DNA of 64,000 nt from Vulcanimicrobiota bacterium (GTDB lineage Bacteria > Vulcanimicrobiota > Vulcanimicrobiia > Eremiobacterales > Eremiobacteraceae): the NCBI GenBank assembly GCA_963812135.1, contig CAWETU010000001.1:1664001-1728000 (forward strand). The letters are read 5' to 3'. Shown piece after piece: positions 1 through 6,329 of the stretch; positions within the stretch are counted from its first letter, which is position 1; every line of letters begins with the position of its first letter. The notes under the pieces are model-generated. The model searched no databases. It worked only from the letters and a program-made list of their open reading frames with translations, and was not told where the DNA came from. A program made the position numbers and the translations under genes.

Positions 1-1020
1 AGCGAGCGCGTCCAGACCGCCCAGCTGCGAGCCGCCGCCCGTGAGCACGAGTTCAGCGAGCATTACTTCGGGCGGGCAGTTCTCGGCGAGGTTGGCGCGC
101 ACGAGTTTGAAGATCTCCGTCATGCGCGCGATGATGATCTGGCGCAAGAAGTGCTTCGATGCGCCGCGGCTGGTCCGGCCCGAGAGCGACTTGACTTCGA
201 ACGTCTGCTGGTCGAGATCGAGCGTGAGATCGGCCGTGCCGTAGACGTGCTTGATGTTCTCGGCTTCTTGGAAGCTCGTCTTGAGGCCGAGCGCGATGTC
301 GTTGGTGACGATGTTGCCGCCGACGGGCACTGTCCACGTGTGATAGACGCCGCCGCCCCAGTAGACGGCGAGATCCGTCGTGCCGCCGCCGATGTCGAGC
401 AAGGCGACGCCCGCGTTGCGCTCTTCTGACAACAGTACGGCCGCGCCCGATGCGAGCGGTTCGAAGACGACGCCTGCCGGCTCGACGCCGGCGCGGTGCA
501 CGCACTTGAGCACGTTGGTGACGAACGAGGTGCCGGCAGTCACGACGTGCGTGTCGACTTCGAGCCTGCCGCCCGCCATGCCGATTGGATCGGTGATGCC
601 GTTCTGTCCGTCGACCGCGAATTCGCGCGGCAACGTGTGGATGATCTGCCGGTCGGGCGGCACGTTGATGATGGTGCTCGCGTCGACGACGCGTTTCACG
701 TCGAGCCCCGCGACCTCGCGCTCGTCACCGCCGACCGCGATGATGCCGTGCGTGTTCTGCGAGCGCACGTGTTCGCCGGTCACGCCGACATACGCCGAGG
801 CGATGCTCACGCCCGCCATGCGCTCGGCGGTTTCGATGGCGGCTTCGATCGACTTGACGGTCTCTTCGAGGTCGGTGACGACGCCTTTGCGCAATCCAAG
901 CGAGGGCGCGACGCCGAAGCCGATGATATCCATCGCGCCTTCGCGGCTTGCGCTCGCGATGACGACCGCCGTCTTCGTCGTGCCGATGTCGAGACCGGCG
1001 ATGATGTCGTTACGCGCCAA
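1..1020 (-). CDS. ftsA: Cell division protein FtsA (3' end runs off the window)
   Basis: Not in the ORF track (no stop in window). Manual translation from TTG at 1020 gives MARNDIIAGLDIGTTKTAVVIA...GLRKGVV..., the FtsA actin-like N-terminus. GAGGA RBS upstream; follows ftsQ. Confidence 0.95.
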   Translation of the reverse strand, partial: MARNDIIAGLDIGTTKTAVVIASASREGAMDIIGFGVAPSLGLRKGVVTDLEETVKSIEAAIETAERMAGVSIASAYVGVTGEHVRSQNTHGIIAVGGDEREVAGLDVKRVVDASTIINVPPDRQIIHTLPREFAVDGQNGITDPIGMAGGRLEVDTHVVTAGTSFVTNVLKCVHRAGVEPAGVVFEPLASGAAVLLSEERNAGVALLDIGGGTTDLAVYWGGGVYHTWTVPVGGNIVTNDIALGLKTSFQEAENIKHVYGTADLTLDLDQQTFEVKSLSGRTSRGASKHFLRQIIIARMTEIFKLVRANLAENCPPEVMLAELVLTGGGSQLGGLDALA

Positions 1021-1034
1021 GAAATGTCCTCATC

Positions 1035-1099
1035 TTCTCCACAGGACCGCTGCGGTTGTGCACAGGCGCGGGCCGATTGTGCACACGGCATGTGGATAA
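1035..1099. promoter_or_regulatory. Cluster of four DnaA-box-like 9-mers
   Basis: TTCTCCACA 1035-1043, TTGTGCACA 1056-1064, TTGTGCACA 1077-1085, and a perfect inverted box TGTGGATAA (=TTATCCACA) at 1091-1099. Confidence 0.7.
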
Positions 1100-1117
1100 C
1101 CTCGCCATACAACGCAG

Positions 1118-1139
1118 TCGGCGACCCGAAGGTCGCCGC
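1118..1139 (-). other. Stable cUUCGg hairpin in the ftsQ-ftsA spacer
   Basis: Minus strand CGGCGACC-TTCG-GGTCGCCG, 8-bp perfect stem; no U-tract. Confidence 0.55.
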
Positions 1140-1158: not shown

Positions 1159-1183
1159 ATTCCAAGCGGAAAACGAGTTCCCT
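1159..1183 (-). promoter_or_regulatory. SigH-like promoter for ftsA
   Basis: Minus strand AGAGGG-N17-GAAT with A-rich upstream flank; resembles the B. subtilis sigma-H consensus AGGA-N17/18-GAAT. Confidence 0.5.
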
Positions 1184-1202
1184 CTTTTGTTTGCATTATT
1201 TT

Positions 1203-1982
1203 TCATCGCCGATATTGCACCGTCGGCGCCGCGATACTGCGCACGTCGACATATTCGACGGCATCGGGCTGCGCGATCCGTTTGCGGATCGCGTCGTACA
1301 GCGCGACCTTGCGCGCGAGATCGTCGAGATCCCCGAACACGACGCGCAGATTTGCATCTGTGAACGCGCTGATGCCCATCACCGGCTCGGTTTGTATTTC
1401 CGTCACGTGGACGCCGAGCGCGGTGAGCGCCTTCGCGGCGGCCAGCGCGTCTCCGACCGCCGTCGCGGCGAGCAGCGTCCCTGCGGTGCCGGCCCCGGGC
1501 GGCAGCGGGTGGACCGCAAGCACCGGCAACGTCTGATCCGCGTTGTCGTCCGCGTCGCCGAGCGCGCGTGCGTCGGCGTCGATCAGCATGTAAGGTTGCG
1601 CCGCCAGCGCGACGCGCGCCGCTGGTACCCGCTCGGTCACCACGATCGCCACTTGATTCGGCCAACCGCGCTCGATCGTGGCGGATGCGATCCAAGGCAT
1701 TCCTTCGATCCGGCGTCGCGACGCAGCTGTGTTCAGCAGCCAGATGTTGCGGCCGGCGGGCAATGCCGCTGCGGCCAGGATGTCGCCAGTGTTGGCGCGG
1801 TGCGCGCCGCGCACGCCGACGTCAGCCAGCGCGAAGCGCGGATCGGCGGCGGCCACCACGGCTACGTAGCCGATGGCGCCGGCGGCGAGGATGATGAGCA
1901 GCGCGAGTCCCAGGCGGCGCGCAGCGCCCGCGCGACCGGGCGCCGCTCGTCGTCGAGCTGCCGTTGCGTTCGCGTTAGCCAA
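1203..1982 (-). CDS. ftsQ: Cell division protein FtsQ/DivIB
   Basis: Basic N-terminus, single TM helix, POTRA motif (PWIASATIERGWPNQVAIVVTERVP), C-terminal YVDVR; upstream of ftsA. Confidence 0.88.
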   Translation of the reverse strand: MANANATAARRRAAPGRAGAARRLGLALLIILAAGAIGYVAVVAAADPRFALADVGVRGAHRANTGDILAAAALPAGRNIWLLNTAASRRRIEGMPWIASATIERGWPNQVAIVVTERVPAARVALAAQPYMLIDADARALGDADDNADQTLPVLAVHPLPPGAGTAGTLLAATAVGDALAAAKALTALGVHVTEIQTEPVMGISAFTDANLRVVFGDLDDLARKVALYDAIRKRIAQPDAVEYVDVRSIAAPTVQYRR

Positions 1983-2805
1983 CGGCTTGGCCGTTCATGA
2001 GCAACTGGAGCGCCTCGGCGACACCCCCGCGGTCTTGAGCGCCAACCACCCGCTGCGCCGCGGCGCGCGCCGCCGGCGACGCGTTTGCGACCGCGAACGA
2101 GTGCCCCGCCGCTTGGAACATCGGCACGTCATTGTCCGAGTCGCCGATCGCCGCGAGGTCGTCCATTCCAAGACCCATGGATTTCGCAAGCCAGGTGAGC
2201 GCGTGCCCCTTGGTCGCCGCCGGATCGGTTACCTCAAGGAACTCCGGCATGCTCTTGAACACGAGCGCGGAGTCCCCAAGTTCATCTGCCAGTTTGGGGA
2301 TGTGGTCGGCCACATGCGCGGGCGTGTCGATGCCGAGAACCTTCATCGGACCGATGTCCCCGGGCGGCGATCCGTCGAGCAGCGCGCGCAAATCGTCGAC
2401 CATCACCGGCTCGACACGCGACAGCGCGAGATAATGCCGCGCGCGATCGTCGAGCTCGTCAAGGTACAGGCGGTCGCCGAAATACAGCTGCAGGTGAAAG
2501 CCATCGCTTTTAAGATCGTCGTACGCCCGCAACGCGGTCGCCGCTTGCATCGGCACTGCGCTCAGCATCGCAGCGCTGGCAGCGTCGTAGATCGCGGCGC
2601 CGTTGAGCACGATGATCGGGCCGGGCAACCCGAGCTCGCTCGCGAACGGCCGCGCGGCGGAGAACATTCGCCCGGTCGCAAGCACGATCGTGCTGCCTGC
2701 AGCCGCGGCCGCGCCAATGGCCTCGCGATCCCGCTCGCTGATGAGAAGCGAGGGGCCGACAAGCGTGCCGTCGAGATCGATCGCGATCAGGCCGGGCGGC
2801 TTCAC
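1975..2805 (-). CDS. Cof-type HAD-IIB hydrolase
   Basis: DLDGTL, ATGR, KGHAL, GDSDNDVPM motifs. Confidence 0.92.
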   Translation of the reverse strand: MKPPGLIAIDLDGTLVGPSLLISERDREAIGAAAAAGSTIVLATGRMFSAARPFASELGLPGPIIVLNGAAIYDAASAAMLSAVPMQAATALRAYDDLKSDGFHLQLYFGDRLYLDELDDRARHYLALSRVEPVMVDDLRALLDGSPPGDIGPMKVLGIDTPAHVADHIPKLADELGDSALVFKSMPEFLEVTDPAATKGHALTWLAKSMGLGMDDLAAIGDSDNDVPMFQAAGHSFAVANASPAARAAAQRVVGAQDRGGVAEALQLLMNGQAVG

Positions 2806-5800
2806 GCGGCGCCCTCCCAGACATTGTCCGTGCCGAACAGTTTGGCAAGCTCTGCCCGCAGCTCGCCGGTGATCCGCAGCTTGCGCGCCAGCGCGCGGCT
2901 GCCGTTCTGCGTCGGTGCGTGCAGCACGATGCGTCCGTCGCCCAGTCCGGCGGCGAGCACCATGTCGCGCAGTCGGCTAAGGCGCGTCGCGTCATCTTCG
3001 TCGCCGAGCATGCGGATGTGGATGGCGAGCTCTGCATCCGCGCTTCGCTCGGGTACTATATTTGCTTCGGAGCTTCGCTCGGGTACTACGATCCTATCTG
3101 GGGTTATGATGCGGGCCTTCTCCAGCGGCCACGCTTCGTTGGCCTGCACGCTCAGCTCGGGCCGCTCTTCTTCTCCGCTGTCCTCGCCCGAGACGACGAT
3201 GGCGGGTTTGCCGGGCACGCGCCGCTCCTTGACGCGGCCTTTGATGACCACGATCGAGTCTGTGACGAGCAGCGGCGCAAGCTCCGCATACCACTTCGGG
3301 AACGCGATCGTCTCGATCGAACCGCTTTGATCCTCAAGCCGGGCGATGAGCATTTGGTCCCCGGCCTTGGTGATCACTCGCCGCGCCGCCGTGATGACGC
3401 CGCCTACCCACACCATCTCATCTTCACCCGTCTCGCGCAAGGCGGCGATCGTCGATGTCGTGCGTCGCGCCAGGTCGCGCGCCTTGTCAGCGAGCGGATG
3501 GCCCGAGATGTACACGCCGATCGCTTCCTTCTCTTGGGCGAGCCGTTGCGACGGCGTCGCTTCGGCGACCAGCGGAAGCGCCGGCGGGGGCATGTGCGAC
3601 TCGCCGTCGCCGCCGAACAGCGATGTCTGGCCTAGGTCGCGCTCCTGTGCGAGCTGCTGTCCGTAGTCGAGCGCGTTGTCGAGCCCGGCGAGCAGCGCAG
3701 CGCGACCCCCGAATGCGTCGAGCGCGCCGGCCTTGATGAGCGATTCGAGCACGCGCCGGTTCACCTGGCGGCCGTCCACCCGCGAGCAGAGCTCCGCGAG
3801 CGACTCGAACGGTTTTTCTTGGCGTTTGGCGATGAGCTCAGCGATGGCACCCTCGCCGACGTTGCGCACCGCACCGAGGCCGAACCTGATGGCTCCGTCG
3901 CTCACCGTGAAATCGGTCCCCGACACGTTGACGTCGGGCGGCCTGATCGGCAGTTTCATGAGCGAGCACTCAGCGAGGTACTCGGCGACTTTGTCGGCGT
4001 TGTTCTTGAGCGACGATAGCAGCGCGGCCATGAATGCGAGCGGGTAGTTCGCTTTGAGCCATGCCGTGCGATAGGCGAGCAAGCCATAGCAGACAGAATG
4101 CGCCTTGTTGAAGCCGTAGCCGGCGAACGGCTCGATGAACTGCCAGATCTTCGTCGCGAGCTGCTCGTCGATGCCGTTGCGCACGCAGCCGTCGATGAAC
4201 TTGGCGCGCTCGGCCGGGATCTTCTCTTTGATCTTCTTGCCGATGACCTTACGCATCTCGTCCGCCTGCGCGACCGTGTGACCCGCAAGATCGCGGCAGA
4301 TTTGCATCGCCTGCTCTTGATACACTGCGATGCCGTAGGTCTCGGTCAGGATCGGCTCGAGCTTCGGATGCAGGTACGTGATCTTGCGCCGCCCATGCTT
4401 GCCGGCGATGAAATCGTTGATCCAGTCCATCGGGCCGGGCCGATACAGCGCCACCATCGCGATGACGTCTTCGATGCACGTGGGCTTCAACTCGGCGATG
4501 TAACGCCGCATGCCGGCGCTTTCGAGCTGGAAGATGCCGGTGGTATGGCCGGACGAGAGCGCTGCGTACGTCAGCTGGTCGTCAAGCGGGATGTCCTCGA
4601 TTGCAAACGCAGGATCGGCGGTCCGCCGGATCTCTTGCGTCGCGCGCTCGATGACCGTCAGCGTCCGCAGCCCGAGGAAGTCCATCTTGAGCAGGCCGAC
4701 TTTTTCGACCCAGTCCATCGAGTACTGCGTGTTGACGTCATCGTCGCCAAGCTTGACAAGCGGTGCATATTCCGTGATGGGGCCGGGTGCGATCACGACG
4801 CCGGCCGCGTGGGTCGACGCGTGCCGCGCCAGACCTTCGACGCGCATCGCGGTATCGAGCAGCTCGTGCGCGCGCGGGTCGCGGTAGTAGATCGCGTTGA
4901 GCTCCGGCACGCTGTCGATCGCTTGACGGATCGACACCGGGTTAGTCGGCACGTTCGGGATCAGCTTGGCGATGCGATCGACGTCCGCGAGCGGATGGCT
5001 CATCACGCGTCCGACATCGCGCACAGCGGCGCGCGCCGCCATCGTGCCGAAAGTGACGATCTGCGAGACGCGATCCGCGCCGTATTTCTGGCGCACGTAG
5101 TCGATGACTTCATCGCGTCGCTCGAAACAGAAGTCGGTGTCGATGTCCGGCATCGAGATGCGCTCGGGGTTGAGGAAACGCTCGAAGAACAGGTTGTAGC
5201 GCAGCGGGTCGACGTCCGAGATGCGCAGCGCGTAGGCGACGATGCTGCCGGCGGCCGAGCCGCGTCCCGGACCGACGGGTATCCCCTTCTCACGGGCATA
5301 GCGTATGAAATCCCATACTATAAGGAAGTAGGACGAATAGCCCATGCGCGTGATGACTCCCAGCTCGTACTCCAGCCGCTCGAGCTGTTCTGGGGTCGGC
5401 GTGCCGTAGCGCTCGCGCAGACCCGTCATGCACAGGGAGTGCAGGTACGCGGTTTCGCCGCCTTCGTGCTCGGGGACCGGGAACGTCGGCAGCGCGAAGG
5501 ACTTCGATTCGAGGTCCAACTCGACCATCTGGGCGATGTCCAGCGAGGCGTCGCAGGCGTCGGGCGTCTCGGCGAACAGCTCGCGCATCTGGTCGGCGGT
5601 CTTGAAATGGAAGTCATCGCCTTCGAAACGCAATCGATCGTTGTCCGACACCAGCTTGCCGGTGCCGATGCAGAGCAGCACGTCGTGCGCGGCGGCGTCA
5701 TCGCGCGCGAGGTAGTGCGAGTCGTTGGTGGCCACCGCGCGGACGCCGGTCTCCTTGGAGAGCGTGATCAGCTGCGCGCGCACTTTGTCTTCGGCCGCCA

Positions 5801-6329
5801 TGTGATGGTGATGCAGCTCGAGGAAATACCGGTCGCCGAAAATGGCGCGGTAATCGCGCACGAGCGCGCGCGCACCGGCCACGTCATCATGCAGCAGCGC
5901 CTGCTGCACCCCGCCACCAAGGCAGCCGGATAGCACGACAAGCCCCTCGCTGTGGGCCGCGAGCAACTCGAGGTCGACGCGCGGCTTATAATAGTAGCCC
6001 TCGAGGAAGCCGGCCGACACGAGCTTCAAGAGATTCTGGTAGCCGGGGCGGTTTATCGCGAGGACGGTGAGATGATATTCGTCGCGCGCACTGCGATCGA
6101 GGCGTCCGCGCGGCGCGACGTACATCTCGCAGCCGATGATCGGCTTGATGCCTTTGGATCTGGCGGCGAAATAGAACTCGAGCGCGCCGTAGAGCACGCC
6201 GTGATCGGTCAGCGCCAGGGCAGGCATCTCGGTTTCGGCAGCGGCCGAGACGAGGTCGCCCACGCGGCAGGCGCCGTCGAGCAGCGAGTACTCGCTGTGC
6301 ACGTGCAGATGGACGAAGCTTTTGCTCAT
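2802..6329 (-). CDS. dnaE: DNA polymerase III alpha subunit (replicative DnaE type)
   Basis: HLHVHSEYSLLDG, intact PHP metal ligands (TDHG, NDSH), GRGSAAGS, ERISMPDIDTDF, KMDFLGL, YGFNKAH; 1175 aa, no intein. Confidence 0.97.
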   Translation of the reverse strand: MSKSFVHLHVHSEYSLLDGACRVGDLVSAAAETEMPALALTDHGVLYGALEFYFAARSKGIKPIIGCEMYVAPRGRLDRSARDEYHLTVLAINRPGYQNLLKLVSAGFLEGYYYKPRVDLELLAAHSEGLVVLSGCLGGGVQQALLHDDVAGARALVRDYRAIFGDRYFLELHHHHMAAEDKVRAQLITLSKETGVRAVATNDSHYLARDDAAAHDVLLCIGTGKLVSDNDRLRFEGDDFHFKTADQMRELFAETPDACDASLDIAQMVELDLESKSFALPTFPVPEHEGGETAYLHSLCMTGLRERYGTPTPEQLERLEYELGVITRMGYSSYFLIVWDFIRYAREKGIPVGPGRGSAAGSIVAYALRISDVDPLRYNLFFERFLNPERISMPDIDTDFCFERRDEVIDYVRQKYGADRVSQIVTFGTMAARAAVRDVGRVMSHPLADVDRIAKLIPNVPTNPVSIRQAIDSVPELNAIYYRDPRAHELLDTAMRVEGLARHASTHAAGVVIAPGPITEYAPLVKLGDDDVNTQYSMDWVEKVGLLKMDFLGLRTLTVIERATQEIRRTADPAFAIEDIPLDDQLTYAALSSGHTTGIFQLESAGMRRYIAELKPTCIEDVIAMVALYRPGPMDWINDFIAGKHGRRKITYLHPKLEPILTETYGIAVYQEQAMQICRDLAGHTVAQADEMRKVIGKKIKEKIPAERAKFIDGCVRNGIDEQLATKIWQFIEPFAGYGFNKAHSVCYGLLAYRTAWLKANYPLAFMAALLSSLKNNADKVAEYLAECSLMKLPIRPPDVNVSGTDFTVSDGAIRFGLGAVRNVGEGAIAELIAKRQEKPFESLAELCSRVDGRQVNRRVLESLIKAGALDAFGGRAALLAGLDNALDYGQQLAQERDLGQTSLFGGDGESHMPPPALPLVAEATPSQRLAQEKEAIGVYISGHPLADKARDLARRTTSTIAALRETGEDEMVWVGGVITAARRVITKAGDQMLIARLEDQSGSIETIAFPKWYAELAPLLVTDSIVVIKGRVKERRVPGKPAIVVSGEDSGEEERPELSVQANEAWPLEKARIITPDRIVVPERSSEANIVPERSADAELAIHIRMLGDEDDATRLSRLRDMVLAAGLGDGRIVLHAPTQNGSRALARKLRITGELRAELAKLFGTDNVWEGAA
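3042..3088. repeat. In-frame 30-bp-period tandem duplication in the dnaE C-terminal linker
   Basis: GCTTCGCTCGGGTACTA at 3042-3058 and 3072-3088 (IVVPERS / NIVPERS). Confidence 0.8.

Follow-up and report, generated by a model that had tools for sequence, protein, structure and literature searches.

Does DnaA act directly on the cell division genes ftsA and ftsZ in Eremiobacterota, a phylum with almost no molecular genetics? This question, which bears on how bacteria tie cytokinesis to replication, is raised by a group of DnaA-box-like 9-mers directly in front of ftsA in the 64,000-nucleotide stretch of genomic DNA analyzed here (in the following, the window). An initial annotation of this DNA had reported three boxes of the same orientation starting at positions 1035, 1056 and 1077, each 21 bp apart, and an inverted perfect box at 1091-1099; all these 9-mers were found as placed. 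Their location between a promoter-like element and the ftsA ribosome binding site, also proposed there, was borne out by the sequence, where the element occupies 1159-1185 on the minus strand and the ribosome binding site 1027-1031.

The four boxes in the ftsQ-ftsA spacer

At the left end of the window, the minus strand carries the genes dnaE (2802-6329), a HAD hydrolase gene (1975-2805), ftsQ and ftsA in this order. The ftsA gene product matched Pfam FtsA and SHS2_FTSA as well as NCBIfam TIGR01174 (ftsA, 366 bits), and ftsZ (TIGR00065, 443 bits) is located on the same strand directly downstream of ftsA, beyond the window edge. The spacer between ftsQ and ftsA comprises 182 bp. Read in ftsA sense direction, the ftsQ stop codon is followed by a short A/T-rich run, the promoter-like element, 20 nt and a hairpin. 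Another 20 nt with a U-rich stretch lead to box 1, which is separated by 5 nt from box 2 (TGTGCACAA in this direction). After 12 nt, TGTGCACAA is repeated as box 3, and a further 12 nt precede box 4, the GAGGA sequence and the TTG start codon. The coordinates of all features are compiled in Table 1.

Table 1. Features of the ftsQ-ftsA region in the window
Feature	Position	Strand	Sequence and remarks
ftsA CDS	1..1020	-	5' part in window; TTG start 1020-1018
Shine-Dalgarno-like GAGGA	1027..1031	-	read from sequence; 6 nt ahead of TTG start
Box 4, ftsA-proximal (predicted)	1035..1043	+	TTCTCCACA (TGTGGAGAA on ftsA sense strand)
Box 3 (predicted)	1056..1064	+	TTGTGCACA; 21 bp from box 4
Box 2 (predicted)	1077..1085	+	TTGTGCACA; 21 bp from box 3; convergent with box 1, 5-bp gap
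Box 1 (predicted)	1091..1099	-	perfect TTATCCACA on ftsA sense strand; + strand reads TGTGGATAA
Hairpin-box 1 spacer	1100..1119	-	U-rich GTTCTT-like stretch, GCGTTGTAT here
Hairpin	1119..1138	-	C-GGCGACC-TTCG-GGTCGCC-G; conserved; ftsA sense direction
Promoter-like element (candidate)	1159..1185	-	AGAGGGAA-N12-TTGGAAT; sigmaH-like core AGGRWW, 11-nt gap, GAAW
ftsQ CDS	1203..1982	-	TGA stop 1205-1203; Pfam POTRA_1, FtsQ-type, E = 1.1e-17

The GAGGA sequence was kept in four of the five other four-box arrays of the window's genus. In the genomes G003 and G002, a GGAG within the proximal box is the only Shine-Dalgarno-like sequence. Box 4 of the window likewise overlaps a GGAG, which may be conserved as a ribosome binding site instead of as part of a box. 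In all 23 loci of the family (L002-L024; window 1018-1020), ftsA begins with TTG (20 loci) or GTG (3 loci), so that a weak start codon is conserved; in the sister families, ATG predominates. A small open reading frame of 51 codons (1010-1165), running from the TTG of TTGGAAT across the boxes, was rejected as not conserved, since in the closest relative it is interrupted by a stop codon after 7 codons.

Box 1 matches the consensus perfectly. Boxes 2 to 4 each differ from TTATNCACA by one mismatch at position 3, which is occupied by G or C. This exchange, which the initial annotation had named as the box variant of high-GC genomes, is documented in the relevant passages of PMC4285127, where G or C at position 3 is reported as a high-affinity form of the box in high-GC actinomycetes. 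The origin-side boxes of the genome studied here all have A at position 3, so that the three phased boxes are probably weaker sites and may even not be DnaA sites; box 1 is the probable high-affinity anchor for DnaA. As a convergent pair, boxes 1 and 2 form an imperfect inverted repeat; TGTGCACA itself is palindromic.

The window contains four TTNTNCACA matches, all of them inside these 65 bp. This total is not unusual (shuffled sequences had 1.97 matches on average and 16 of 100 reached four); the clustering is. A scan of the genome for DnaA boxes had been suggested along with the initial annotation. Performed on the complete assembly (2.79 Mb, 6 contigs, 64% G+C), it singled out the ftsA spacer and the region upstream of dnaA. 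The genome harbors 11 perfect TTATCCACA sequences and 322 sites with at most one mismatch to TTATNCACA. At least four such near-consensus sites per 100 bp were present at only two loci, upstream of dnaA (C1:307876-307944) and in the ftsQ-ftsA spacer, compared to a mean of 0.005 and a maximum of 1 locus in 200 genomes shuffled within 200-bp blocks, a procedure that keeps local composition and does not keep dinucleotide and codon structure. Places with at least three sites numbered five against a shuffled mean of 0.3. Over the whole genome, near-consensus words reached about half of their shuffled frequency (322 observed vs 630 +/- 24), suggesting that box-like words are avoided outside a few clusters.

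Other perfect boxes of the genome are located before dnaX, ftsY, glnA and further genes. Just upstream of dnaX, a perfect box is accompanied by a convergent TGTG partner (C1:251157-251173; L070 in the window's genome, G000), and this pair sits inside the 3' end of the preceding gene for an AMP-binding enzyme. It was absent from the other 31 family genomes searched, and no regulon is therefore claimed from the other perfect boxes. In the two large contigs, the cumulative GC skew had no usable turning point and a scan for a dif-like core returned nothing convincing, so that no claim is made on the position of the locus relative to the replication terminus.

Conservation of the boxes and a pair shared with the dnaA upstream region

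We sampled 30 ftsA regions from relatives, 23 from the window's family f1 (its own locus included) and seven from the sister families f2 and f3, and added seven further ftsA loci from MAGs. The close FtsA relatives are Eremiobacteraceae MAGs of Candidatus Eremiobacterota/Vulcanimicrobiota, mostly from soil. Comparison of the ftsQ-ftsA spacers, another check put forward with the initial annotation, revealed that boxes and spacing are conserved. Of the 23 family loci, 11 have a perfect TTATCCACA on the sense strand, located 36-80 nt upstream of the ftsA start, and two more have CTATCCACA there. The core TATCCACA is invariant in all 13 aligned loci, which represent four genera (g1, g3, g4 and g6) and have a mean column identity of 54%.

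Six of the seven genomes of the window's genus carry the four-box array, and the seventh (G001) has the convergent pair only. The boxes are spaced by 21/21 bp in five of these six arrays and by 22/21 bp, with a degraded box, in the remaining one. The sequence of the 12-bp spacers between the boxes differs freely among the genomes of the genus while their length stays constant, which argues for selection on both boxes and phasing. Box 3 (TTGTGCACA) is kept in six of the seven genomes; box 4 (TTCTCCACA) is identical in six of seven and occurs twice in genus g6. In other genera, the position of box 2 is taken by TGTGGACAA, TGTGGACAG or TGTGGAGAA at a gap of 3-4 bp. Genus g6 has three boxes with 18-bp spacing, genera g3 and g4 have a pair, and in the pair of genus g8 the inverted member is perfect (TTATACACA in the unpublished genome G013, TTATTCACA in G020). 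Across the relatives, the inverted box follows the pattern TGTG-[G/C/T/A]-A-[C/G/T]-A-[A/G], and 3-6 bp separate it from the perfect box. Its most variable position is position 5 (C, G, A or T), which corresponds to the N of the published consensus.

Spacer boxes were not found in the genera g2, g5, g7, g9 and g10, and in 7 of the 23 family loci no box lies within 100 nt; statements on g2, g5 and g8 rest partly on unpublished genomes (G010, G013 and G016; loci L016, L019 and L023). At locus L015 there is a lone one-mismatch word. The seven loci of the sister families contain no perfect box, and five of them have one-mismatch words scattered without a fixed place. As the array is absent from several genera of the family and from the sister families, it is not essential.

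Two further sequence elements were noticed upstream of ftsA. Genera that lack boxes in the spacer carry ATATCCACA in the 3'-terminal part of ftsQ, some 170-230 nt ahead of ftsA, where it is read as the codons ATA TCC ACA and encodes part of the peptide K-I-S-T. All 11 loci concerned have this sequence unchanged (L017, L018, L020, L022, L023 from an unpublished genome, L042, L043, L045, L046, L047 and L050) while neighbouring third-codon positions vary; it could serve this operon as an alternative DnaA box. In f2 and f3, the sister families (L025-L031), one or two copies of CCACAATAT or a close variant lie 20-130 nt before ftsA, in the region where the window's family has the predicted DnaA boxes. 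This element may be a -10-like sequence or the site of another regulator.

The genome contains one dnaA gene, which adjoins dnaN and diverges from rpmH-rnpA in a classical origin neighbourhood. The DHTTV stretch of the DNA-binding domain, which we take from the E. coli domain IV structure to contact the box, is kept in its product. The protein, a canonical DnaA, can be aligned along almost its entire length to a solved DnaA (8btg, E = 3.5e-150). Seven near-consensus boxes, all with A at position 3, lie in the rpmH-dnaA spacer (C1:307876-307944 and three more at 307666-307699), and this region contains the convergent pair TTATCCACA-GG-TGTGAATAG.

A search for TTATCCACA-N2-6-TGTG in 32 family genomes yielded 47 places in 28 genomes; the reversed control yielded 0 in all 32. 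Within about 1.3 kb of dnaA, recognized by its AAA+ domain, were 22 places, nearly all of them with the same 15-mer as C1:307888, and 11 were directly upstream of ftsA. One place was left unplaced, as no dnaA was found in its genome (G014) at the threshold used, and 13 were elsewhere or unplaced. The only places common to all seven genomes of the window's genus were those upstream of dnaA and upstream of ftsA. In the family, too, the pair is consistently shared only at the dnaA/oriC region and in the ftsA leader. The strongest argument follows from this finding, namely that whatever binds the origin-side boxes should also bind the ftsA leader. The shared pair suggests a direct link between DnaA and ftsAZ, and as a sequence-level pointer it is about as clear as comparative genomics gives.

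Box modules were also observed elsewhere. A third conserved module, TTCTCCACA-N5-TGTGAATATGTGGATAA (C1:321126-321156; L063), precedes a thiD-like gene at a distance of about 13.6 kb from dnaA. Its homologue in genus g3 (L084, L086) lies about 12.7 kb from dnaA and has the perfect and imperfect boxes swapped, with TTCTCCACA in the window's genome where g3 has TTATCCACA and vice versa; several of the convergent-pair places counted as elsewhere in g3 belong to it. This exchange supports TTCTCCACA as a working variant. Finally, the genome has two copies of the composite CTAT[G/C]CACATATCCACA-N16/17-TGTGGATA[C/G], one upstream of dnaA (C1:307666-307707) and one just before a gene for a sugar ABC-transporter binding protein (C1:580690-580732; L064). 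The latter copy may be a further DnaA-binding cluster.

A hairpin and a promoter-like element in the ftsA leader

Calculation of a consensus structure with RNAalifold revealed the hairpin upstream of box 1 as the only sizeable helix (9 pairs), with a loop of 4-6 nt. Its stem exhibits G-U wobbles (in 3 + 1 sequences) and one compensatory swap from C-G to U-A, which fits an RNA in ftsA sense direction. For the leader in the window, folding gave a z-score of -3.0 against shuffled sequences. The distance from hairpin to box 1 is 20-21 nt in 13 of 13 loci, and the GTT-T stretch in between (alignment columns G98, T99, T100 and T102) is invariant or nearly so. Likewise, box 1 and the promoter-like element are 56-62 nt apart in all 13 loci. 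As the distance from the box to the start codon varies (36-80 nt) while that to the hairpin is fixed, the box is positioned relative to the leader hairpin and not to the gene start. A scan of the region 900-1400 for intrinsic terminators found 0; 6-7 nt separate the stem from the start of the U-rich stretch. As a known RNA family, the best Rfam match (mir-254, 19.5 bits, E = 0.24) was rejected.

In the promoter-like element, AGGGA and TT-GAA do not vary among the 13 aligned loci, and a similar element is present in most other loci of the family. The sigmaH consensus RMAGGRWWW-N11-12-RRMGAAW, as printed in the relevant part of PMC4754846, was compared by eye and matched at 7 of 9 and 4 of 7 positions with an N11 gap. 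A looser sigmaH-like pattern had 18 matches in comparison to 4 for the reversed control. The strict element occurs only once in the genome, so that no promoter class is established by it, and a sigma70 promoter scan of the region 900-1400 returned 0 promoters. Based only on its conservation and the partial match to the consensus, we regard the element as the putative ftsA promoter.

A SigH ortholog is encoded at C1:1870307-1870894 of the window's genome (L071; 340.7 bits vs an NCBI equivalog cut-off of 294.8). A SigH-type factor was found with almost identical scores in 39 of 41 genomes of the class and is thus nearly invariant in a non-Firmicute phylum; its presence therefore does not separate families that have the element from those that lack it. 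A Spo0A ortholog above the cut-off was not found in the genome.

Possible roles of the array and comparison with known systems

The array is confirmed as conserved and far beyond chance. That its 9-mers are DnaA sites is well supported by the comparative evidence, and a regulation of ftsA-ftsZ by DnaA via these predicted sites is plausible. We infer that DnaA binds here, and take the direction of the effect, a putative repression, from the position of the array alone. On balance, we lean towards the view that the ftsAZ leader holds a predicted DnaA-binding array that would lower ftsAZ transcription at high DnaA activity. In such a model, one perfect box would serve as anchor for three weaker, opposed boxes, phased by 21 bp, in the transcribed ftsA-ftsZ leader. 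Abundant active DnaA, present before initiation or with stalled replication, would occupy the array and hinder RNA polymerase coming from the ftsA promoter as well as reading through from ftsQ, so that synthesis of FtsA and FtsZ would fall. When DnaA activity drops, the block would be lifted. The fragment is short and hence amenable to in vitro work with purified DnaA.

The fixed spacing between hairpin and box suggests, more speculatively, a DnaA-assisted attenuator. We consider it rather doubtful that hairpin and perfect box form one such device in the ftsAZ leader. Polymerase stopped by box-bound DnaA would then be held on the U-rich stretch, having just passed the hairpin, and the hairpin, too weak alone, would release the transcript only with DnaA on the array. 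The weaker boxes with their 21-bp phasing would tune the response to the level of DnaA-ATP. If this were true, the potential for replication initiation would directly set the supply of FtsA and FtsZ in this lineage.

The boxes might also bind DnaA in order to act on DnaA itself, by titration, inactivation or reactivation in the manner of the B. subtilis DnaA-box clusters or of E. coli datA and DARS; their location ahead of ftsA would in that case be of secondary importance or incidental. The density of the cluster is comparable to that of the oriC-like region, and stable complexes of DnaA at intergenic box clusters are described for B. subtilis in parts of PMC2533591. Furthermore, an opposed pair with a 5-bp gap and a consensus box, followed by boxes of the same direction, recalls the DARS core as outlined in PMC6868365. 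We nevertheless hold a DnaA-directed function to be unlikely, since the distances of 20-21 nt to the hairpin and of 56-62 nt to the promoter-like element, kept in 13 of 13 loci, point to integration into ftsA transcription, and the number of boxes goes down to two in some relatives. Binding of a different protein to repeats of the TGTG...CACA type, such as a dimeric helix-turn-helix regulator recognizing TCCACA-N-TGTGGA or the TGTGCACA palindromes, would make the likeness to DnaA boxes a coincidence. The inverted repeat formed by the convergent pair and the palindromic TGTGCACA would suit such a protein, and position 3 of the phased boxes is unlike that of the boxes in the oriC-like region. 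However, the palindrome is peculiar to the window's genus. A regulator bound to TGTGCACA palindromes had been named in the initial annotation as a scenario that would speak against DnaA sites, and it turned out to be improbable, because these positions are occupied in relatives by TGTGGACAA, TGTGGAGAA, TGTGTATAA or TGTGAATAA, none of them palindromic, and because the half-sites are separated by a gap of variable length (3 to 6 bp). The freedom at position 5 of the inverted box, together with this gap, fits monomer-wise binding of DnaA better than a rigid dimeric binder of palindromes. Moreover, the full 9-mer TTATCCACA is kept beyond its CCACA core, and the same type of pair marks the dnaA upstream region at 22 places, all of which renders another regulator very unlikely.

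Least credible, in our estimation, is that the conserved sequences act as RNA, either as an ftsA leader or as an ftsQ 3' element affecting stability or translation, with no role of the boxes at the DNA level. The better-than-shuffled fold of the leader would be in line with such a function, as would the conserved hairpin, whose G-U changes suit a sense RNA. RNA libraries cover the region as well: in soil metatranscriptomes (four runs), contigs span 1056-1205 (X1, with 0 other letters and 1 inserted A) and 881-1075 (X4), which are small shares of the stretch from contigs whose starts, ends and strand are not readable and which may derive from DNA carry-over. Against an RNA function, the RNAalifold helix over the boxes is limited to a stem of 3 invariant pairs between boxes 1 and 2, no Rfam family matches, and the fold score is explained by the hairpin, which is separate from the boxes.

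Schaefer and Messer reportedly found in 1988 that the DnaA/DnaA-box complex blocks RNA polymerase. At the E. coli asnC terminator, a DnaA box in the transcribed region acts as a roadblock that stops RNA polymerase. The ftsA leader has its boxes in a predicted transcribed region as well, with the addition of a hairpin at a fixed distance of 20-21 nt upstream of the box.

According to passages of PMC11317965, E. coli DnaA prefers tandem pairs of boxes 2-3 bp apart, termed 'double DnaA box'. A pair of one consensus and one weaker box as the binding unit is also predicted here; in contrast, the close pair of the ftsA leader is convergent (5 bp; 3-6 bp in relatives) and its tandem boxes are 12 bp apart. 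In the DARS core, as described in the respective section of PMC6868365, a 5-bp gap separates the opposed boxes I and II, boxes II and III have the same direction, and box II is the consensus box. The array resembles E. coli DARS1 and DARS2 in the opposed pair with a 5-bp gap that includes a consensus box and in the further boxes that follow in the direction of the second, a comparison that concerns the relative orientation and spacing of the boxes only. Boxes II and III of DARS, which is defined by its ADP-release activity, are close neighbours allowing head-to-tail contact, whereas 12-bp gaps separate the tandem boxes here, and the array is located inside a gene leader. The similar layout keeps a DnaA-directed function in titration or nucleotide exchange alive as a rival.

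In B. subtilis, ftsAZ is transcribed from a sigmaH-dependent promoter (PMC12421865, in a passage citing Gonzy-Treboul 1992). The genome studied here has a SigH ortholog and, before ftsA, a sigmaH-like core element as a candidate promoter. Unlike in B. subtilis, there is no Spo0A ortholog above the cut-off, and the passages of that source on B. subtilis ftsAZ mention no DnaA boxes.

E. coli has the same gene neighbourhood and gave rise to the same idea, but serves as a caution: three DnaA boxes in ftsQA, which lie upstream of the ftsZ promoters, later turned out to have no control over ftsZ transcription (Smith et al. 1996, in the summary given by a section of PMC8203912). The E. coli boxes are inside ftsQ and ftsA, whereas those described here form a phased cluster between genes that is conserved across genera and statistically singular within this genome. 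The same section states that no major effect of the transcriptional activity of DnaA on the timing of cytokinesis has been demonstrated in any species.

Our literature search found no paper tying Eremiobacterota to DnaA regulation and none on a DnaA-box array before ftsA outside E. coli and Caulobacter. DnaA is described as a transcription factor on division genes, namely ftsZ of Caulobacter crescentus and ftsL (yllB) of B. subtilis, and its reported effect on Caulobacter ftsZ is activation (relevant parts of PMC8203912 and PMC2533591). As in these two systems, the boxes of the window lie in the control region of a cytokinesis gene and a coupling of replication and division is proposed. In contrast to them, the putative target is ftsA-ftsZ of an uncultured member of the Eremiobacterota, and four boxes occupy the leader up to the ribosome binding site, downstream of the putative promoter. 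An action of DnaA on division genes is known; new are the array of predicted DnaA sites in the ftsA leader of this lineage and its unusual architecture.
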